Shown piece after piece: positions 17,014-61,412 of a stretch of 64,000 bases of DNA (positions are counted from its first letter, which is position 1; each line of letters begins with the position of its first letter). Position numbers and translations under genes: made by a program. The notes beneath the pieces were generated by a model that was given only the letters and a program-made list of their open reading frames with translations, had not been told where the DNA came from and made no database searches. The stretch lies in IMG/VR virus record IMGVR_UViG_3300012979_000034, positions 18,405-82,404 of that record; one strand, given 5' to 3'. The DNA is from a virus. Taxonomy: Duplodnaviria; Caudoviricetes.

Positions 17014-17259
17014 CTAGTCTAATATCTTATCAATTATTAGGGATAATGGTAATGCTAATATAAGAATAGGCCAAATTGGTATTATTATATATGAGATACC
17101 TTCAATAAGTGTATCCTTATATCTTTTAACCTTATTACTAACTAGATATTTATAAATTAAAGTTCCTATAGTTATATATAATATACAACCAAGGTAAACT
17201 GCTAGGATTATCAATAAAGTTTCCATATCAATATCTTGTTTTAAGCCTTGTATTTCCAT
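17014..17259 (-). CDS. Small two-TM membrane protein
   Basis: Two hydrophobic stretches and a WPI motif. Confidence 0.55.
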   Translation of the reverse strand: MEIQGLKQDIDMETLLIILAVYLGCILYITIGTLIYKYLVSNKVKRYKDTLIEGISYIIIPIWPILILALPLSLIIDKILD

Positions 17260-37396: not shown

Positions 37397-39136
37397 TTAT
37401 TCGTTATTAATTTCTGTGGATATAGTACCAGAAGTCTTATCAATACTAAGAGTAAGACTAATTTCCTGAATAGGTACAATGTCCTTAAATTTCAAGATTA
37501 CTTTATACTTACCCTGACGAACATCGGCTTCATTATTAATTTGAAGGTCATCATAAGAAGAGGCATTCTGATCACCCAACCACTCATATTCGGAGATAGC
37601 ATCTCTAGTAACCAAATCATCTAACTCTGGTTTAACCTCAAGGTACATAGCTGCCCAGGTAGTCCAAATATTTGGTTCCTCTAAGTAAGATTCTAGAATA
37701 GGTCTCAAGAACTTTTTCATATACAGTACTAAACGTACAATAGATAAGAACTTGAAACTGTCTTGTTTTACCTGTGAAGTAAAGCAATGCCAGAGCATGG
37801 TTTGCTTACCAGCATTTCTAGTATCCCTTACTACCACCATATTAGCATAGTTATTAGCTAACTCATTCAACTCTGAATACCGAGAAGGAGAGCCGTAATT
37901 GATAGATACAGGGCCTTGGCCATCATATATTACACCACGATTTTGGCCAGCAAATGATTTCCAATAACCGTAGTCAGTAGCTGAAGCATCTCCAAGTCCC
38001 ATAATCGTACCGATACAATCGGAGTCCGTAAGAATACCGTTATCATTATAATACCGAATACCACCACCAAAATAAGCAACCCACTTAGAATGGCCAATAG
38101 TATTAGCACAGGACTGAATCCAACTAACAATAAGGTTTTTAGTATTATTCTCTTTAGGTACTTCGATGTAATAGGTATATTCTGCAACTTCATCACAAAT
38201 TTCCTTAATAGCCTTGTGTACCTTTAATTGATCTGCTGTTTGTAGATGCTGGTGTATATGAGAACATGATACTTGATATATATCAGTATAATCCCTCAAA
38301 TACTCGGCAGATTCAATCCACTGACTATAAGTTGGAGCAGTACCAGAGTTACCATAAGCAGCTTCTACAGTAACTGAGAAAGTACTTCCCATTGGAGTAC
38401 TAAGTACTGTAACTGAAGGTATACTGTTCCCGTCATAACCAGCTTTATCAACCGAATTAGCTAACCAGTTTAGTAATGTGCTAATAGATACTTGATTATC
38501 ATTGCCATCTACTATACCAGGTTCTAGATACTCCGAATTCTGTAAAAAATTAGCTAATGCTAGATAGTCAAACGAAGTATCATTCAAACCTGTTTGGTCA
38601 GCAGCCATAAAGGTTAGTACTGTACCTGACTCTACTACTGTAGTCTTACCTTTACCAAAGATTTGATAGTAGAGGGTATTATTACTTTGATAGAATTTTA
38701 CATGGAAAGTTGGTGAACCATCAACTTCCTGATCATAAGTTTTTGTCCAGAATCCAATTTTGTAAGTAGTATCCCCTTTAGTAAGGGTTAGGATAGTAGG
38801 CAAATTATCTGCAGTTAGTGTACTCTGAGCTTGAATAGGGTTATTTGGTACACTATCTGTAAGGTAACCCTTAGCATAACCCTCTCCAGGAACACGTATG
38901 ATACGAAGTTTTGAACCAAGTCCCAGGGCTTTTTCTATATTAGAAGGAGAACCATCTGGAACAACTTCACTACCAAACAATCTCTTGAATTGGGATATGG
39001 AGGTCACCAACTTAGTAGGGTCATTAAAAGTGCCCTTAGTAGTACGAGTCAACAAGCATGATACACCGATAGTTGGTGTAGTTTGCTCCAAATTGTTGTT
39101 CTCGAGCTTAAAATTTACTGTTGGAGATAATGGCAT
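37397..39136 (-). CDS. Contractile tail sheath protein
   Basis: SFAGQNRG, FLSIVRL and LEEPN...W motifs of the sheath C-terminal domain. Confidence 0.85.
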   Translation of the reverse strand: MPLSPTVNFKLENNNLEQTTPTIGVSCLLTRTTKGTFNDPTKLVTSISQFKRLFGSEVVPDGSPSNIEKALGLGSKLRIIRVPGEGYAKGYLTDSVPNNPIQAQSTLTADNLPTILTLTKGDTTYKIGFWTKTYDQEVDGSPTFHVKFYQSNNTLYYQIFGKGKTTVVESGTVLTFMAADQTGLNDTSFDYLALANFLQNSEYLEPGIVDGNDNQVSISTLLNWLANSVDKAGYDGNSIPSVTVLSTPMGSTFSVTVEAAYGNSGTAPTYSQWIESAEYLRDYTDIYQVSCSHIHQHLQTADQLKVHKAIKEICDEVAEYTYYIEVPKENNTKNLIVSWIQSCANTIGHSKWVAYFGGGIRYYNDNGILTDSDCIGTIMGLGDASATDYGYWKSFAGQNRGVIYDGQGPVSINYGSPSRYSELNELANNYANMVVVRDTRNAGKQTMLWHCFTSQVKQDSFKFLSIVRLVLYMKKFLRPILESYLEEPNIWTTWAAMYLEVKPELDDLVTRDAISEYEWLGDQNASSYDDLQINNEADVRQGKYKVILKFKDIVPIQEISLTLSIDKTSGTISTEINNE

Positions 39137-40521: not shown

Positions 40522-40815
40522 TTATATTATTGCTGCTAGACCGTATATTAATATACTAAAGATAAGTATAAAGGAAACACCTAACATAGCAAATCTTACG
40601 TCACCTAAATCAGGTAAATCATCTAACTTTTTTTCCTTATATAATGAAATAATATAGGTAAACGGTATAGCACAAAATAAACCAATAAATAAACCAATAT
40701 CTTTAAAGAAGATGATTCCAGTTAAAGCTATTAAACTCGTAATAACAGAGCCGACAAGGAAATGTATTACCTTATCAGCTCCGTACTTATTTATGATGTT
40801 ATTGGTTAACTTCAT
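40522..40815 (-). CDS. Small multi-TM protein (VanZ-like DKxxHF motif)
   Basis: DKVIHF followed by three hydrophobic helices. Confidence 0.55.
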   Translation of the reverse strand: MKLTNNIINKYGADKVIHFLVGSVITSLIALTGIIFFKDIGLFIGLFCAIPFTYIISLYKEKKLDDLPDLGDVRFAMLGVSFILIFSILIYGLAAII

Positions 40816-41048
40816 TTCTTCATCTTCTTTTTATACTCTTCATCTTTTTCTCTCTGCTCACGATTAGCATCATATGCCTCTCGGTCTTCAATGTTGTAGA
40901 GGAACATATCACGGAGACGTTCGTATGCGCCCTTGATAAAGTCCCATATTATACTGAAACTTTTCCCGTTTCCTCTCCAGACAACATATAAGAATACTCC
41001 AACGAATAAGATTACAACTAATCTCCATTCTAACCAATAGGGTATCAT
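40812..41048 (-). CDS. Single-TM protein
   Basis: N-terminal hydrophobic helix and charged tail; ATGA overlaps. Confidence 0.55.
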   Translation of the reverse strand: MIPYWLEWRLVVILFVGVFLYVVWRGNGKSFSIIWDFIKGAYERLRDMFLYNIEDREAYDANREQREKDEEYKKKMKK

Positions 41049-41194
41049 TTTTTATCTCCTTTCTTATTTTTAAATAACTTATTATACACTCCGATTACTA
41101 GGTCTCTAAAACCTTCCCGATTTTTCTTACTCATAGCACAAGCCGTAACGACTGAGCCAATAACTAATCCTGCAATAAATCCAAAGTCTTCCAT
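41045..41194 (-). CDS. 49-aa single-TM protein, not in the ORF track
   Basis: MEDFGFIAGLVIGSVVTACAMSKKNREGFRDLVIGVYNKLFKNKKGDKK*; ATGA overlap with the next gene. Confidence 0.55.
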   Translation of the reverse strand: MEDFGFIAGLVIGSVVTACAMSKKNREGFRDLVIGVYNKLFKNKKGDKK

Positions 41195-41224
41195 TTTAAA
41201 GTAGATTATATTAAAAATTAACAA

Positions 41225-41584
41225 CTAGGACAAGGAGTCCTTGGAACCTTCGGAGTCTGTGTCACGGGAACCTGTTTGGGTTTGGGTCTCCGAATCCTTG
41301 TAGATGCTATTATAGATTTTTTCATAACAAGTATCTATATATCCAAAAAATAATTCTAACCAAATTGCTATATATGCTGAAAGGAAAGATATTGGTATAG
41401 ATATTATGATATCGGATTTAGATAATAAACAGAAAATCAATACACTCCAGAATGTTAAACACTTTATGCAATTAACTATTGGTAATCTTTTATTTATTAC
41501 CTCTTCGATAGCTGAAATCAGCCCCATGTGGTTTATTAATACACATGATAATATCAATAAACCAATATCTTCCAATTCATTCAT
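41225..41584 (-). CDS. Membrane protein with CxxC motif (DUF1360-like)
   Basis: NCIKCLTFW between hydrophobic helices. Confidence 0.6.
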   Translation of the reverse strand: MNELEDIGLLILSCVLINHMGLISAIEEVINKRLPIVNCIKCLTFWSVLIFCLLSKSDIIISIPISFLSAYIAIWLELFFGYIDTCYEKIYNSIYKDSETQTQTGSRDTDSEGSKDSLS

Positions 41585-41590
41585 AATTCA

Positions 41591-42067
41591 CTACCCATTA
41601 TTCTGACTAACTTCAGTGGCTTCCGTTTCGAGGGTAAATGATACATTCAAACTACACTCATTAGTAGAAGAGCAACCACAGGATACATTAGCAGCATCAG
41701 CCAATACTCCACTAGCAGTTACAGTAGGCATATCTGGTGAAGTAACTGGTACACATATTACAGCAACCACTTTTTCTGTCTGCAAACAAGTATTTTGACA
41801 ACAACCATAGTTATTATAAACCTGTTCATAAGTTAGGTCGCAAATACAACGAACATCACAACAATACACTTCAGTATTTGGTATAAGACGAGGTGCACCA
41901 AGTATCTGGACATCTAAGTTTGAAGCTACTGGGAAACCTTCTGGGTTATTTACACACATCTTCTTATTACCACAAGTGTAATGAGTTAAACCTAGTACAT
42001 AAGATGCACTTGTCTCTGTACTCCCGGGAACTGGAGTAAGGAAATTTACATAAGTTTTTCCGTTCAT
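41591..42067 (-). CDS. Cys-rich beta protein (13 Cys)
   Basis: YCCDVRCICD, GCCQNTC and SCGC motifs. Confidence 0.65.
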   Translation of the reverse strand: MNGKTYVNFLTPVPGSTETSASYVLGLTHYTCGNKKMCVNNPEGFPVASNLDVQILGAPRLIPNTEVYCCDVRCICDLTYEQVYNNYGCCQNTCLQTEKVVAVICVPVTSPDMPTVTASGVLADAANVSCGCSSTNECSLNVSFTLETEATEVSQNNG

Positions 42068-42116
42068 AGTAATTTAATTTATTTGTTTGGGCAGTCTATT
42101 ATTTACACCACTTGCC

Positions 42117-42383
42117 TTATTGTGCTATATCTTGAATCGGATTAATTAGTTCTTCATTCCTTTGCCTTTCTGATATCAGTTCACTTATTTGATTAGCCAT
42201 AGTTAACATAGCTTTACCAAACTCCTCATTCTGAATTTGCAAGGCATTAACTTTTTCAACCATATAAAAACTCATTTGAGCTGAACAAAAAGCATGTTGT
42301 TGAAGTCCACATTTAGTACAATCCTTAGGACAAGGTCTTACTTCCTGGGTTTTATCTGGATTTGGGTTTAACTCTTCTGCCAT
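42117..42383 (-). CDS. Cys-motif + coiled-coil protein
   Basis: PCPKDCTKC...AFC followed by heptads. Confidence 0.6.
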   Translation of the reverse strand: MAEELNPNPDKTQEVRPCPKDCTKCGLQQHAFCSAQMSFYMVEKVNALQIQNEEFGKAMLTMANQISELISERQRNEELINPIQDIAQ

Positions 42384-42402
42384 AATGATATTCTATTTAT
42401 GT

Positions 42403-42609
42403 TTATTTATGAAAATGTTCTATTACTTTGTTACGTACTATAGCATTATCTTTCCAATGTCTTAATGCTTGTGTTACCTTAGCTGCTGAAACATAACGGC
42501 CTTGTCTACCATGTTCATTAATGAAGTTAATGAAAGCTTGTCTCATTTCATCTACTTCCTGCTGATTTTCAGCCCATATATTAAAAGGGGCTACTTGAAA
42601 TGCTTTCAT
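42403..42609 (-). CDS. Hypothetical protein
   Basis: 68-aa ORF in the operon. Confidence 0.55.
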   Translation of the reverse strand: MKAFQVAPFNIWAENQQEVDEMRQAFINFINEHGRQGRYVSAAKVTQALRHWKDNAIVRNKVIEHFHK

Positions 42610-42630
42610 AGCTGTCTAGTTAATTATTAT

Positions 42631-43002
42631 TTAATTAATAGGCGGTATCTGCTCAGATTCAGCTACTTCTTCTACATCGGTAGTAAGGGTTGGTAATTGG
42701 CCCTTATTTACGATAACCTGACGGATAAATTCATAAACCTGAGATAATGTGTTTTGGTTTTGTTTTACCCAATCCATAACTCCATTAGCACCATCTTTAA
42801 CTTGCTGTTGCCATGTTGGAGGTATAGGATCAAAATCGGGTAAATTAATATCCTTAGCATAAAAATCATACATCTCTTGGGCTTTTTTAAGATCACCATT
42901 ACAGTACCATTGACAAACCTGTTTCAATTGTACTTTACTAGTTGGCCTAAAATTTTGTATAAATTCCATCCGTTCTTTATTTTTTCTATTTAACCATAAC
43001 AT
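42631..43002 (-). CDS. Hypothetical protein
   Basis: 123-aa ORF in the operon. Confidence 0.6.
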   Translation of the reverse strand: MLWLNRKNKERMEFIQNFRPTSKVQLKQVCQWYCNGDLKKAQEMYDFYAKDINLPDFDPIPPTWQQQVKDGANGVMDWVKQNQNTLSQVYEFIRQVIVNKGQLPTLTTDVEEVAESEQIPPIN

Positions 43003-43019
43003 CTGAGATAGTATTTATA

Positions 43020-43066
43020 TATAGATTGGGTTGAAAAAAATAAACCTTCCCTCAACCCAATCTATA
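43020..43066. repeat. Perfect 15-bp inverted repeat with 17-nt loop
   Basis: TATAGATTGGGTTGA (43020-43034) / TCAACCCAATCTATA (43052-43066). Confidence 0.9.
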
Positions 43067-43078
43067 ATCTAAACCATT

Positions 43079-43567
43079 TTAGCGTCCGCAGTTACAACTA
43101 CCTGGGCAACCGCATGGTTGAGGTGAGCTGTAGAGGCAAACAGGTTGAGCATCCAAACTTGAACGACCAGTCAGTCTATCGGAGATAATCTGATTATAAG
43201 CAGTAGCCATAGCAGAGTTCTCAACACTAGTATTCTGTGAAGTACTCTGCTGTCCCTGGATAGTATCAGCAACTGATTGAGTAATATTGATGTCACCCTG
43301 GATACGGCGGTTTACTTCACTCTCCAACAAAGCTCCAATATTATCCAACCTCTTGTCAATACCCTCTGAATAAGCTCTGCTAACGTTCTTAGCCTCATTA
43401 GCTTTAGCTCCAGCCCATGCACCTGCACCAATAGCAAGCACTGCTGCACCTACTGCTACGGTTAAACCTGCAATGGCCGTTCCACTAGCATGCTTAGAAT
43501 TCATGGCACCAATTTTAAACTGCTCATACTGAGACAAACCGTACAAACCGTTGGTTGTATTTTCCAT
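43079..43567 (-). CDS. Membrane-anchored protein with Cys-rich C-terminus
   Basis: Gly/Ala-rich hydrophobic segment; ends PVCLYSSPQPCGCPGSCNCGR. Confidence 0.65.
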   Translation of the reverse strand: MENTTNGLYGLSQYEQFKIGAMNSKHASGTAIAGLTVAVGAAVLAIGAGAWAGAKANEAKNVSRAYSEGIDKRLDNIGALLESEVNRRIQGDINITQSVADTIQGQQSTSQNTSVENSAMATAYNQIISDRLTGRSSLDAQPVCLYSSPQPCGCPGSCNCGR

Positions 43568-43692
43568 ACTCTTTCATTTTTAAAGTTAAACATTAAGTTA
43601 TATATTATCGAATGCGCATTCTCTATTGTTATAGATAATTACTAAGTTATTAAGTTTCGCTTAACTACTACTTTTAACTCAAATGGGGGGAT

Positions 43693-44397
43693 TTAGACTA
43701 CATCACTTCCATAAGTGAATGAGCCTGTACCAGCATTGCCGTACAGTGTACCGCCAATCTTGTCATACAGGTATCCAACTCCGTCCTTTCTAACAGGGAT
43801 GAGGTCATAGACCACATTGTCTCCAACTGTTATCTTGAAACTGTAGTACTTGACAGGGTATCTGTATGGTGTCCTGTAGCCTCCAAAAATTCTGAATTCC
43901 GTTATCGCAGCAGTAAGTGGCCTTGCAAGTGTCCTACTGGTTATTTCCCCATTCTCATTGCTTGACCATATACCCTCAGTGCTGAACTCCAATGTCGTCT
44001 TTACTCCACTTATAAAACTCCATCCACCGCTTGATGACACATTCCCGACATGAGAGGCAAACATCAACGAGCCAGTGCCTGAAGTATATGAGTAGAAATC
44101 GGTATTCATCTGCTGATAAGGACTTGCCCCGAACAACGCATACCTGTTTTTCGTTGTCCTTGAACTGTCATAGGTCGAAAGGAACTCACAATCCACACAT
44201 AGATATGTGTTCTTGGCAACTGACAATGGTAGCTGAATGTATTCAGTTCCACTGCTGCCAAGCCATTCCACCTCTGCATCATATGGAAGTGGTGCAGGTC
44301 CACTGCTGTACACAAGAGTGTCACCAAGGTACATCTTGCTAACCTCAGTACTGCCCAAATATATCTTACTGATGTTTTCTGCTCCTTTTCCTATCAT
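43693..44397 (-). CDS. Fibre-associated protein with beta-sandwich (LamG-like) domain
   Basis: ISKIYLGSTEVSKMYLGDTLVY N-terminal motif and YDLIPVRKDGVGYLYD C-terminal motif, both typical of fibre modules; foreign composition. Confidence 0.55.
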   Translation of the reverse strand: MIGKGAENISKIYLGSTEVSKMYLGDTLVYSSGPAPLPYDAEVEWLGSSGTEYIQLPLSVAKNTYLCVDCEFLSTYDSSRTTKNRYALFGASPYQQMNTDFYSYTSGTGSLMFASHVGNVSSSGGWSFISGVKTTLEFSTEGIWSSNENGEITSRTLARPLTAAITEFRIFGGYRTPYRYPVKYYSFKITVGDNVVYDLIPVRKDGVGYLYDKIGGTLYGNAGTGSFTYGSDVV

Positions 44398-46504: not shown

Positions 46505-47443
46505 TTACCATTGCCTAAATGTTACTGTACTACCCTTTTCTCCTTTAGGACCTTGGATGCCTTGTTCTCCTTGTGGACCCTGAATACCTTGGATTCCTTG
46601 AGATCCAGTGTCTCCTTTAGGTCCTTGAGGTCCGGTGTCTCCGGTATCTCCCTTCGGTCCTTGAGATCCCGTGTCTCCCTTGTCTCCCTTGTCTCCTTTG
46701 GAGCCCTTAGTTCCATTCTTCACCTGGAATGTAGACTGCGTTCCATTAGTCAGGGTCACAGTGACGATATTGTTGCCTCCGTCGGCAGTAGAGGTTGTCG
46801 TCTGCTCTACGGATGTTATGCCAGTACCATCATCTCCTGGGTCTCCCTTCGAACCTTGCAAACCAGTTTCTCCTTGAGGTCCTACTGGTCCTTGTTCTCC
46901 TTGTGGACCGGTATCACCCTTGTCACCTTTTTCTCCAGTTTCACCCTTTTCACCACGCAGCACTGGTGATGTATAAGTAGTACCATCAGTCAAGGTGATG
47001 GTCATGGTATAATCCGGATTGTAGACTATATTCTCAATACCTACACCATCCTCACCACGAACTCCAGTAGAAAGGTTTATTGTAATATCGTTAACCTCAG
47101 TATCAAGACCCTCAGGATCCTGACCACCCTCCATAGAAGTATCTGGAACTAAACGAAAGGCATCTTTTACATCTACTACAGTCTGACCATGCTTACCAAA
47201 ATTTTCCCAAACAGTTATCTTATATATACCAAGTACCTTTTGATCTATTCCCCAAAACATGAACTCAAGGGTATTTACATCGGTAACTGTAAAAGGCATG
47301 TCTATAGCATGACACCTATTATCAATAAGATGCACCCTTAGATCACGCCCTGCTAATGGCCTGGGCTCTTTATTAGTAAGTACATGAAGCCTGTTAGTTA
47401 TATCCTTACCTTTTCTATATCTCTTAATATCAATAATATCCAT
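46505..47443 (-). CDS. Collagen-like fibre protein with BppU-like N-terminal domain
   Basis: Two Gly-X-Y runs after a beta-rich N-terminal domain. Confidence 0.75.
   Translation of the reverse strand: MDIIDIKRYRKGKDITNRLHVLTNKEPRPLAGRDLRVHLIDNRCHAIDMPFTVTDVNTLEFMFWGIDQKVLGIYKITVWENFGKHGQTVVDVKDAFRLVPDTSMEGGQDPEGLDTEVNDITINLSTGVRGEDGVGIENIVYNPDYTMTITLTDGTTYTSPVLRGEKGETGEKGDKGDTGPQGEQGPVGPQGETGLQGSKGDPGDDGTGITSVEQTTTSTADGGNNIVTVTLTNGTQSTFQVKNGTKGSKGDKGDKGDTGSQGPKGDTGDTGPQGPKGDTGSQGIQGIQGPQGEQGIQGPKGEKGSTVTFRQW
46526..46954 (-). repeat. Collagen Gly-X-Y repeats, two blocks (about 15 and 21 triplets)
   Basis: GEKGETGEKGDK... and GTKGSKGDKGDK... read directly. Confidence 0.95.
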
Positions 47444-57754: not shown

Positions 57755-58363
57755 TTATTTTTTGAACTTATAGGTTATTGTTGCCTCTAAGTCTAAATTC
57801 GGTTTATTATTAAACTTTGGATAATAAGAAGAATTCAGGCTTAGTTTATAATTAAGCCTGGTAGTCTCGAATAATATACCTCCAGATAAATCATACAGGT
57901 TATTAAAGGGTCTTATACTAGCTTCTATAAACGGGTATAAGTTTAAACGACGATTTTTGGTATAAGTCATAACACCGTTTGAATAAGAATACTTGTACTT
58001 ATCTAAGTTTATCCTATACAACTCCTTACTGTAAACTGAGTCATTTTTCAAAAAACTCAGACTTATCTGGTTATTCTTTAATTCTAAACCCAACAGTGAA
58101 TCTATAAAACATTTCATCAGAGAATCCTCATCAACCATCATATCTTTGTAAATGATAACTCTCTCAGGTATTAATCTCTCTTTGTATTTTACTACCTCAA
58201 TTGGTTTATCAATAAAAACTGTATCTGTTTTGCTTATAATGGTTGGAGGTAAGTTTTCGATACCATTCATAAACTGGTTTAACCTATATACCCTGAAACC
58301 AAGATATATAGATAAAACCAGTAGAATGGTTGAAAGTATGAATAAGAATAATGTCTTCATCAT
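57755..58363 (-). CDS. Membrane-anchored protein, spanin-like (putative)
   Basis: N-terminal TM, KTDTVFID linker, C-terminal amphipathic beta strands ending ATITYKFKK. Confidence 0.45.
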   Translation of the reverse strand: MMKTLFLFILSTILLVLSIYLGFRVYRLNQFMNGIENLPPTIISKTDTVFIDKPIEVVKYKERLIPERVIIYKDMMVDEDSLMKCFIDSLLGLELKNNQISLSFLKNDSVYSKELYRINLDKYKYSYSNGVMTYTKNRRLNLYPFIEASIRPFNNLYDLSGGILFETTRLNYKLSLNSSYYPKFNNKPNLDLEATITYKFKK

Positions 58364-58599: not shown

Positions 58600-59607
58600 T
58601 TAACTGTTAACTTTTTGGATTTTCCTTAAACACTTTTTAAACCATATACCTACTTCTCCAACAGCCCCCTTAGCTATCGTATATCTAGCTTTATTCAACC
58701 AGTATAGATATTGACTTTCATCCATGTATATCTTAAATTTTTTGGAAAATCCCATTATTTCTAGATAATCCTCTATACCTAATGGCCATCCATCTGGTCT
58801 AAATTGTCTATCTGCAGGTCTTAGGGTTAATGGTGGTCTATTACCCTCTAACCTATATACTCCTGGCAAGGTTTGCATTTTAGCTGTTTTGATAGGCCAC
58901 TTCTTTTCATGTTTAAAATCCTTTACCCACAGATCTCTTATCTTTTTAACTGTTAATGTAGTTTTATCAGGGAGTTTACGATAATCATACATAGCTAGTG
59001 TTTTATCCAAAGGAGGCATAAAATTCTTACCAAAAGCTGGTTTTAATAAATCACTAGTGATTTTTAAATCATGTACTTGAAATTTCCTATCAAAAGCTTT
59101 AAGATACTCTGGTGCTTTAGTTAAATGTACCCCTATTATCATCAATCTTTTCCTTGAAAGTTGTGAATTACCAAACTCTGCTACTGATGAAGTATGATAT
59201 ACTAGCTTATAATCTGAAAATGTGTTCTCAAAAAACTTTTCTGGCATCAGTGACAGTAGTTTTGGTAGGTTTTCAAGTAAAAATATACCAGGTTTGTACA
59301 TCATTATAGCTTCAAACACCAGATTTAGACTCTTATTTTCCTCTGGATTACCCAAAATTTTCACTTTTGACAGTCTCATAGTACTAGAAGCTCCACAATC
59401 TGGTGAACTAAGTATGATATCTGGTTCCCAATTTGGGTCTAAACCACCCTTTAAGAACGGTACATCACCAAAATTTAGCTTCCACTGCTCTTCATTAGCC
59501 GTATGAAACACTGCTCTTGGTTCAACATTAGCTATTAAATTCTTCCTAAACGGAAATAATAGAGCTCCTTGCCCTGCTGATACACCCAAAACTTTCATCT
59601 TTTTCAT
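58600..59607 (-). CDS. Divergent DNA cytosine-C5 methyltransferase homologue
   Basis: Motif I SAGQG, IV SPDCG, VI ENL, VIII QLSRKR, X AKGAV. Confidence 0.7.
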   Translation of the reverse strand: MKKMKVLGVSAGQGALLFPFRKNLIANVEPRAVFHTANEEQWKLNFGDVPFLKGGLDPNWEPDIILSSPDCGASSTMRLSKVKILGNPEENKSLNLVFEAIMMYKPGIFLLENLPKLLSLMPEKFFENTFSDYKLVYHTSSVAEFGNSQLSRKRLMIIGVHLTKAPEYLKAFDRKFQVHDLKITSDLLKPAFGKNFMPPLDKTLAMYDYRKLPDKTTLTVKKIRDLWVKDFKHEKKWPIKTAKMQTLPGVYRLEGNRPPLTLRPADRQFRPDGWPLGIEDYLEIMGFSKKFKIYMDESQYLYWLNKARYTIAKGAVGEVGIWFKKCLRKIQKVNS

Positions 59608-60212
59608 TGTACACCTCTTGTTTTATATGAATTATAGGCTGCTTTTAATCTATTGTGGTAATTATTAGCAGTATATGACGGTCCATTGTAAGCTCTAGCA
59701 AAAGCTATCCAATTCTTACTTCTCAAATGTACCATTAAACCCTGAGAATTGATAAAATTGAAGAATAATACTACTTGATCTGCTGCACTTCTATACATAC
59801 TATTTACGAATTCCTGAAGTGAATCACAACCACAAGCTCTATAATTAAATCCCATAATTTGGAACATTCCAAAAGAAGTAGATTGAAGAGCACAGTCCCT
59901 GTCTATTTTAGCTGCTGGAGTCAATCTTTTATCATGTTCTGCTAAACCACCGAGATAATGTACCCTAGTCCACTGTTTATAAATCAGAGTTGGATATTGC
60001 AAAGCTAACTTTTGTACCTTATCTTCACCATATTTTTGCTTCAAAAGTTTATAAAATACATGACCTTCGAACAATATCTGTGGTCTACCATCACTTAAGA
60101 AACCAGATCTATTACCAGATTCAACTTCTTGAACAGCTTTTACTACAGCTACTTCTATACTATACTTACGTGATAGATCTTCTATCACTTTTTCATAATC
60201 TATGTTTTTCAT
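59604..60212 (-). CDS. Endolysin, N-acetylmuramidase (DUF3380-like)
   Basis: AVQEVESG, ILFEGHVF, SFGMFQIMGFN and FARAYNG motifs. Confidence 0.9.
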   Translation of the reverse strand: MKNIDYEKVIEDLSRKYSIEVAVVKAVQEVESGNRSGFLSDGRPQILFEGHVFYKLLKQKYGEDKVQKLALQYPTLIYKQWTRVHYLGGLAEHDKRLTPAAKIDRDCALQSTSFGMFQIMGFNYRACGCDSLQEFVNSMYRSAADQVVLFFNFINSQGLMVHLRSKNWIAFARAYNGPSYTANNYHNRLKAAYNSYKTRGVQ

Positions 60213-60858: not shown

Positions 60859-61248
60859 ATGAAAAAAACTTTACAAACCCGATTAGAAGTAGGAGAAACC
60901 CTACTATGTTATGACAACAACTCTATAGTTGAAAAGGTTAGTGTAGAATCTGTAGATAAAAAGGCTAAGCTGGCTACATTGAGTAATCAGGTAGTTATTT
61001 CCAGATACCCAGATAAAGATGGTTACTTTGCTAAAGAGGGCAAAGGTAATTACATTATATGCAGATGGGATGAAGAAGTAGAAAGGTTCTATACTTGTAA
61101 AATTGCTCGCTCTAGAGTTTTACACTTTATATCAACTATTCAGGTTGGCTTATTAAATCGTACTTCAGATTTATTACATGCTAGTCAGGAAGACATAGAT
61201 AAACTCATTAAACTAAATAAATATCTAACTAAAGTATTGGAAAAATGA
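60859..61248 (+). CDS. Hypothetical protein
   Basis: 129-aa ORF downstream of the promoter element. Confidence 0.6.
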   Translation: MKKTLQTRLEVGETLLCYDNNSIVEKVSVESVDKKAKLATLSNQVVISRYPDKDGYFAKEGKGNYIICRWDEEVERFYTCKIARSRVLHFISTIQVGLLNRTSDLLHASQEDIDKLIKLNKYLTKVLEK

Positions 61249-61412
61249 TTTTCTTAATTATTATCTACCTATTATCCCTGGTACCATCATTTATTATAAC
61301 ACCAAGGGTTTATCAGAACCATCCACTTAACTGGAACATCTGTTTAGTATTCTTATCAGTATGGCTAGTAATGCCAGTATTTATAATACTAAAATTAATG
61401 AAACTTATTTAA
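61245..61412 (+). CDS. 55-aa two-TM membrane protein, not in the ORF track
   Basis: MIFLIIIYLLSLVPSFII...VWLVMPVFIILKLMKLI*; ATGA overlap. Confidence 0.5.
   Translation: MIFLIIIYLLSLVPSFIITPRVYQNHPLNWNICLVFLSVWLVMPVFIILKLMKLI

Follow-up and report, generated by a model that had tools for sequence, protein, structure and literature searches.

We analysed a nine-gene region of a tailed phage whose IMG/VR record (IMGVR_UViG_3300012979_000034) is 82,404 bp long with direct terminal repeats. The stretch under study, here called the window, comprises 64,000 nucleotides (bases 18405-82404 of the record). Nine co-oriented open reading frames (ORFs), which we call g1 to g9, occupy minus-strand positions 40522-43567 of the window, between fibre-like genes and the genes preceding the tail sheath. 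The sheath (37397-39136) and tube genes lie on one side of the region and a collagen-like fibre gene (46505-47443) on the other, and genes for the capsid protein and the large terminase are also in the window. An initial annotation of this DNA listed the same nine ORFs, which are confirmed in our ORF list, and treated them as one operon. Our comparisons reveal instead a module, g1 to g6, that is real, conserved, and so far undescribed.

We compared the region by tblastn and hidden Markov model searches over 31 non-redundant related loci drawn from IMG/VR, ENA/Logan contigs, two rumen Bacteroidaceae metagenome-assembled genomes (MAGs), and one GenBank phage. The genes g1-g2-g3-g4-g5-g6 (41225-43567) had the same order and orientation in all 31 loci; in three of them g1 was shifted by a few kb and did not adjoin g2. 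The features of the module in the window, in the direction of transcription, are as follows (TM, transmembrane segment).

43568..43692, minus strand: leader, the 125-nt intergenic segment upstream of g1.
43079..43567, minus strand: g1, 162 aa, with one Gly/Ala-rich TM (about residues 26-55), long helices, and a CxCP..C tail ending CGCPGSCNCGR.
43020..43066, minus strand: hairpin immediately behind the g1 stop codon; its stem is perfect (15 bp) and its loop 17 nt long.
42631..43002, minus strand: g2, 123 aa, soluble; its C-terminal tail is conserved and of LPPIN type; present in 31/31 loci.
42403..42609, minus strand: g3, 68 aa, soluble; present in 31/31 loci.
42117..42383, minus strand: g4, 88 aa, with a four-Cys knuckle (C-x3-C-x2-C-x7-C) that includes CPKDCTKC, followed by a helical region.
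41591..42067, minus strand: g5, 158 aa, an all-beta sandwich with 13 Cys; the most conserved member of the module.
41225..41584, minus strand: g6, 119 aa, with three TM and an acidic C-terminal tail; present in 31/31 loci.
41218..41325, minus strand: g6b, 35 aa, overlapping the 3′ end of g6 in the +1 frame; the peptide is basic, rich in Pro, Thr, and Lys, and has CPSC as its last residues.

Directly after g6, 30 of the 31 loci carried a gene of the Pfam family DUF7841 (PF25223). The sole exception was the window phage, where the family is absent from the whole 82-kb genome. The full module order is g1, g2, g3, g4, g5, g6 with the overlapping g6b, and then DUF7841. The window phage has colinear g1-g6, g6b in the +1 frame, and a hairpin behind g1; it retains seven of the eight genes and has lost DUF7841. 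Thus, the initial view of a single co-conserved operon stands for g1-g6, while g7-g9 are separate, the eighth gene is missing, and g6b had been overlooked.

The genes flanking the module were unrelated between carriers, which include an 82-kb myovirus (the window phage and locus L015), 50-kb temperate phages, and 110-140-kb phages. In the 50-kb phages with integrases, the module has tube-like genes on one side and a PF05521 head-completion gene on the other; in the 110-140-kb phages it stands at the end of the fibre operon. Since g5 of the window shares 83% identity with g5 of a 124-kb phage, compared with 78% within its own lineage, the module moves between phages. Together, the sequence comparisons point to a strictly syntenic, horizontally mobile unit of Bacteroidaceae phages, an eight-gene set that spans at least three unrelated phage architectures.

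The samples were mostly from rumen, and two module copies were in contigs binned to Bacteroidaceae MAGs; the hosts are Bacteroidaceae. The window also encodes a single-domain PF11860 muramidase (59604-60212; 7.9e-63), an endolysin type typical for phages of Gram-negative hosts. A g1 profile recovered at least 1,865 protein clusters, and two sampled loci from this set again held the whole module. The g5 family is small: clustering at 90% identity gave 62 clusters, matched at 53% identity or more, and 49 of 1.84 billion representatives belong to it, none of them fused to another domain. A diverged copy of the module, with every gene annotated as hypothetical, is present in the cultured Bacteroides phage BS162P1 (OP172706.1; host B. 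salyersiae). This copy was found only via DUF7841, and the position of its g5 was weakly recognisable (hhalign E 0.011). Searches of the literature on BS162P1, DUF7841, and Bacteroides phage lysis turned up nothing on the module. Bacteroidaceae are dominant in the human gut and in the rumen, and little is known about the ways in which their phages lyse or protect cells; because BS162P1 is in culture, the function of the module is directly testable. At a minimum, the comparison yields a hidden overlapping gene and re-annotates the region as two units.

The hidden gene is g6b. In all 31 loci, the 3′ end of g6 was overlapped in the +1 frame by an ATG-started ORF containing C-P-x-C and encoding peptides of 24-84 residues, while the +2 frame control gave 0/31. 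The CPxC motif was at the very C-terminus in 26 loci and internal in the five most distant. It is the tenth gene of the region, which the initial annotation did not list.

The arrangement of g6 and g6b recalls the Rz/Rz1 spanin of lambda, as g6b is a short peptide with Cys and many Pro residues that is read in the +1 frame of a membrane-protein gene, and as the TM helix of g1 precedes long helices, like that of an i-spanin. However, g6b has neither a signal peptide nor a lipobox, the overlap is limited to the 3′ end of g6, and g6 is polytopic rather than a bitopic coiled-coil protein. As it lacks a signal peptide and lipobox, g6b cannot be an outer-membrane lipoprotein, and no hydrophobic N-terminus was found for it in any of the 31 loci. 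A two-component spanin, which has an outer-membrane lipoprotein with a lipobox, was therefore rejected: no such protein is supplied by g6b in the 31 loci or by g7, whose VTAC string is not kept in a homologue at locus L054.

We determined which residues of the module proteins are invariant. Across 22 sequences, these were Y14-E15-Q16, C152, C154, P155, and C158 in g1, and, in g4, the four Cys alone besides the start Met (also 22 sequences). The invariant residues of g2 are S22, C30, A41, P55, D58, and I122. In g5, C32, C69, C90, C105, and C130 are invariant and accompanied by many lineage-specific Cys, and in g6 the invariant residues are His19 and C39-x-x-C42, at the start of TM2. Predicted Cys knuckles are invariant in five products. 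The motifs that the initial annotation had singled out (the CGCPGSCNCGR end of g1, CPKDCTKC in g4, the 13 Cys of g5, and CxxC in g6) are all present, as are its TM proteins, with hydrophobic segments in g1 (one), g6 (three), g7 (one), g8 (one), and g9 (three). As g2-g5 and g6b have no hydrophobic N-terminal segment, we read them as cytoplasmic.

That annotation had proposed a disulfide-crosslinked or metal-binding, membrane-anchored assembly. The invariant Cys motifs and the two integral membrane members fit the metal-binding and membrane-anchored part of this proposal. Disulfide crosslinking is unlikely as the default, since g2-g5 and g6b are read as cytoplasmic and Bacteroidaceae are anaerobic. 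Because the hosts are anaerobic and most of the products are presumably cytoplasmic, we read the CPxC-type motifs as metal knuckles, probably zinc, not disulfides. Such knuckles are invariant in g4, g6, and g6b. As g6 and g6b supply a single knuckle each, they have the layout of a shared two-chain metal site, the arrangement of intermolecular zinc sites such as the CD4-Lck clasp and the Rad50 hook. The module proteins are not homologous to zinc-ribbon or zinc-clasp proteins; the comparison is one of motif logic alone, with metal binding putative.

The Cys-rich products had also been likened to the spore coats of Firmicutes. A disulfide-crosslinked coat akin to the spore coat or exosporium (DUF1360, CotE/SPOCS, Ena-like fibres) would account for a Cys-rich beta protein such as g5, and CNCNC strings at the N-terminus of some g5 homologues recall the Cys connectors of Ena fibres. 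However, g5 has no signal peptide, g5 of the window has no N-terminal Cys, and the hosts are Bacteroidaceae. No product had a Pfam match at E ≤ 1, DUF1360 and DUF3992 included, and g6, which had been called DUF1360-like (PF07098), had no NCBIfam match either. Neither the Foldseek list for g5 nor the 50 matches listed for it by VIA exhaustive alignment contained a CotE/SPOCS coat or Ena structure. These comparisons gave the spore-coat likeness no support, and we consider a coat of this kind very improbable.

Profile searches of Pfam (E ≤ 1), PHROGs, NCBIfam, and PADLOC returned nothing usable for any of the nine products. Holin families in Pfam and PHROG gave no profile match to g1, g6, g9, or any other product, and PADLOC-DB gave no meaningful match to the nine products or to DUF7841. 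No PDB sequence scored below E 0.08 with the profiles of g1, g2, g3, and g6, a set of 50,697 GenBank phages contained no blastn or tblastn match to the region, g5, or g1, and an Atlas feature search gave nothing for g5 and unnamed viral clusters alone for g1. The module shows no similarity to any described family, save that its eighth gene belongs to DUF7841, a family without known function that also occurs in Bacteroidaceae genomes in another five-gene context.

The AF2 model of g5 (predicted local distance difference test [pLDDT] 87.1, predicted TM-score 0.81) is an all-beta sandwich with long strands. Foldseek searches of PDB and BFVD with this model gave nothing at E ≤ 0.001. In the VIA alignment, HSP20/CS chaperone-type beta-sandwiches dominated the list, with 5ds1_A the best at Z 5.9 (root-mean-square deviation 5.4 over 89 residues), which is below the stated background, where the best Z is 7-8; g5 had no match to the HSP20 family of Pfam. 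A chaperone-like fold would suit a role in morphogenesis, in which the module provides a membrane-anchored platform or chaperone set for the head, neck, or fibre, by the same logic as T4 gp40 with gp20 at the inner membrane, or in which g1 or g5 is itself a virion component. The setting of the module also fits such a role, as it is always among structural genes: it adjoins PF05521 head-completion and tube-like genes in L019 and L021, follows the capsid gene in L058 and the fibre genes in many loci, and precedes the neck and sheath genes in the window. However, the differing flanks of the lineages leave no fixed structural partner apparent. Moreover, g6 is polytopic and g1 bitopic, and to our knowledge tailed-phage particles contain no membrane; with two integral membrane proteins among the members, a virion role is unlikely.

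Expression of g1 bears on the same question. The 15-bp hairpin within the operon, already noted in the initial annotation, is a perfect inverted repeat (arms 43020-43034 and 43052-43066, between g1 and g2) with a fold of -29.2 kcal/mol and z = -4.6. A hairpin with z < -2 against shuffled sequences lay within 90 nt of the g1 stop codon in 22/22 loci, including three in which g1 is apart from g2; the hairpin sequences are unrelated. We infer that this element is a terminator, an attenuator, or a 3′ mRNA-stabilising hairpin. Because equivalent hairpins trail g1 in all 22 loci, we read g1 as an over-produced subunit, and most simply the hairpin raises g1 output above that of the other module genes. 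As 3′ hairpins behind highly expressed genes are typical of major structural genes, this feature also fits a role in morphogenesis.

Two further claims of the initial annotation did not hold up. The leader, which had been described as structured, folded no better than shuffled sequences (43565-43695; z = -0.35). The codons of g1, described as capsid-like and highly expressed, ranked 55th of 66 genes by codon adaptation index against capsid, sheath, and tube, a coarse test in such an AT-rich genome; just its GC content at third codon positions (0.35) equals that of the capsid gene. A start-proximal A/T-rich string, TTAAC-TTTAAAAAT, recurs in the leaders of AT-rich relatives.

Regulatory elements of another kind accompany the module in relatives. 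A helix-turn-helix (HTH) gene occurred with the module in 22 of the 31 loci and was directly upstream of g1 in 18, and a Bacteroidetes-type TAnnTTTG box lay 68-93 nt upstream of g1 in 9/22 loci, compared to 0.06 expected per 200 nt. No such box was present within 200 nt upstream of g1 in the window, and a scan for sigma-70 promoters and terminators was not above shuffles. Regulation is clearly built into the module: a hairpin follows g1, one gene overlaps another, and most lineages add an HTH gene and a host-type promoter of the module's own.

In the high-GC lineage (L007, L013, L023-L026, L036, and others), the segment 60-170 nt upstream of g1 contains a TAnnTTTG box with a GC-rich palindrome just downstream of it, and the conserved string TTATTCACAACACAAAAAC precedes the start codon; the palindromes were judged by eye. 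Just upstream of the g1 leader, this lineage has a small HTH gene, whose Pfam matches (Mor and HTH) are weak.

A host-type promoter raises the possibility of a moron-type accessory operon, in which a membrane complex made from its own promoter shields the infected cell or lysogen by superinfection exclusion or abortive defence, or else remodels the envelope, with no part in lysis or assembly. Besides the HTH genes and the boxes with palindromes seen downstream, this explanation is supported by the movement of the module among phage lineages, by integrases in 6/31 fetched loci (about 10 kb either side of g5), one of them directly upstream of the HTH gene (L026), and by g7-g9, the neighbours of the module here, which sit among early genes in L054. 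However, most carriers have no integrase near the module, and the module of the window, which has neither an HTH gene nor a host-type box, is inside the late operon. No product matched PADLOC or NCBIfam, and seven to eight co-evolving genes are many for exclusion, which is usually the work of one gene (T4 Imm/Sp, P22 SieA, HK97 gp15). We regard a moron-type operon as rather unlikely. A morphogenetic role, against which the module's own host-type promoter in the main lineage also counts, is a good deal less likely still.

The model that we prefer, tentatively and as somewhat short of an even chance, is that the module builds a metal-bridged inner-membrane complex that acts on the host envelope, in lysis control or exclusion. 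In this model, g1 would be made in excess through its 3′ hairpin and would insert into the inner membrane by its Gly/Ala-zipper helix. The three-TM protein g6 would be its partner, with the cytoplasm-facing CxxC of g6 and the CPxC of g6b together forming one zinc knuckle. On the g1/g6 platform, the cytoplasmic proteins g2, g3, g4 (with its four-Cys knuckle), and g5 (the Cys-rich beta-sandwich) could then dock, and the complex would work on the host envelope, not in the virion.

Exclusion and lysis timing are the two leading candidates for what this complex would do. Lysis control, with g1 as a single-TM holin like T4 T and with cytoplasmic regulators, is possible although doubtful. As in T4, where holin T works with the antiholins RI and RIII, g1 has the layout of a class III holin: its cytoplasmic N-terminus is short, one TM follows, and the C-terminal domain, which bears Cys, is larger. 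The small soluble and membrane proteins encoded with it are potential regulators. Endolysin genes adjoined the module in two lineages (GH19, 31.8 bits, L010; GH108, 69.2 bits, L016), and small holin-like and spanin-like membrane proteins flanked it in many loci (TA90, f17, f28, and f67). In the main lineage, a tail-anchored coiled-coil protein, a TM and coiled-coil protein, and a two-TM protein follow the module on the same strand. Unlike T, however, g1 has no similarity to any holin family, and hole formation is putative, read from architecture and neighbourhood. The partners number seven to eight rather than two, Cys knuckles occur throughout, and the endolysin is usually far off. Superinfection exclusion or another moron-type envelope function is somewhat less likely than lysis control, and an assembly or virion role is clearly unlikely; a function of some other kind has an appreciable chance, ahead of each of these taken singly.

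The tail-anchored TA90 protein of the relatives was also considered as XhlA (PF10779). This assignment was rejected, as the signal was sub-threshold coiled-coil noise in G305 and G306, with none at the TA90 gene.

Several observations weigh against a metal-bridged complex for lysis control or exclusion. The topology of g1 was not settled by the positive-inside rule, and its AF2 model is of low confidence (pLDDT 49.5), with helices at 13-24, 29-47 (the TM), 56-105, and 118-133 and a disordered Cys tail. Adjacency to an endolysin gene is the exception, as this gene and the module are 16-47 kb apart in three complete genomes (G000, G304, and G306). The temperate relative L010 already has a putative holin, an endolysin, and a spanin beside its module. 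The host-type promoter and HTH gene of the main lineage suggest expression independent of late genes rather than late lysis, and an independently timed accessory function such as exclusion fits them at least as well. For exclusion, on the other hand, no PADLOC match supports a defence role, and the position of the module, always among structural or late genes and never among replication genes, does not favour a moron.

The L010 genes in question lie directly after the module (L010:11476-13121) and encode a 169-aa membrane protein (phrog_15037; putative holin), the GH19 endolysin, and a 170-aa protein that has a lipobox (LMVGC) and a C-terminal TM, the layout of a unimolecular spanin.

A bolder form of the proposal, which we consider speculative, is that the module encodes an undescribed, widespread eight-protein machine joined by inter-chain metal knuckles, with one zinc site split between the products of overlapping genes. 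Such a machine might carry out an infection step without known counterpart, for example the non-canonical timing or execution of egress through the Bacteroidota envelope.

The remaining three ORFs of the region differ from the module in their distribution. They are as follows.

41045..41224, minus strand: g7, a single-TM protein of small size whose tail is basic; translation probably starts at the ATG at 41194, for a product of 49 aa.
40812..41048, minus strand: g8, 78 aa, with an N-terminal TM and a charged tail; 64% identical to its homologue in L054.
40522..40815, minus strand: g9, 97 aa, with three TM; its L054 homologue adjoins those of g7 and g8.

These genes were absent from all other loci among the 31 with the module, and a scan of viral contigs with g9 found nothing. 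All three occur together at L054:4849-5601 in a complete 87.6-kb phage (IMGVR_UViG_3300012016_000003), directly after SSB (PF00436) and RecT (PF03837) genes. This phage has no g1 and lacks the g1-g6 module. Since DUF7841 follows g6 elsewhere and g7-g9 follow it here, the trio occupies the place of the eighth gene. We conclude that g7-g9 are an unrelated membrane cassette standing at the usual position of DUF7841.

The location of the trio in L054 resembles an early region. We also considered g7 as an o-spanin lipoprotein and rejected this, as the L054 homologue starts at the Met equivalent to the likely true start and has no Cys.

The DUF7841 family was found in 11/301 Bacteroidaceae genomes (L040, L043-L051). 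Most of these copies belong to another conserved five-gene set, often beside a tyrosine recombinase and without g5 or g6 nearby. The set consists of a beta-rich "MGCN..." protein of 112-141 aa, a coiled-coil protein (about 175 aa), a product rich in Gly, Arg, and Tyr, DUF7841 itself, and a roughly 130-aa protein in which an HExxH-like motif occurs; Pfam gave no match for its members. Kinship between g5 and the 112-aa "MGCN" protein was considered and dropped (hhalign E 0.6). In a further context, L052:1492-2972 (minus strand), an HTH-like gene is followed by genes for a 168-aa protein and a 142-aa protein and then by a DUF7841-like gene. The 168-aa protein has a Gly-rich hydrophobic segment like that of g1 and an "SRYE" motif, and this locus may be a relative of the module in reduced form.

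In a 95-kb phage (L057:5386-7144), a reverse transcriptase gene (RVT_1, a weak match) and a DUF4376 fibre gene are just upstream of the module, which suggests a diversity-generating retroelement acting on the fibre.

Elsewhere in the window, two small ORFs outside the studied region are alternative holin candidates, each with two strong TM segments: 17014-17259 (minus strand, 81 aa) and 61245-61412 (plus strand, 55 aa). With these and a third ORF at 57755-58363, the idea that the module is the sole source of membrane proteins, and hence of a holin, for this phage was rejected. The third ORF (minus strand, 202 aa) lies between a methyltransferase-like gene and the large terminase gene, near the endolysin, and its product had no family match. 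It has a strong N-terminal hydrophobic segment with a beta-rich remainder and may be an envelope or lysis protein.

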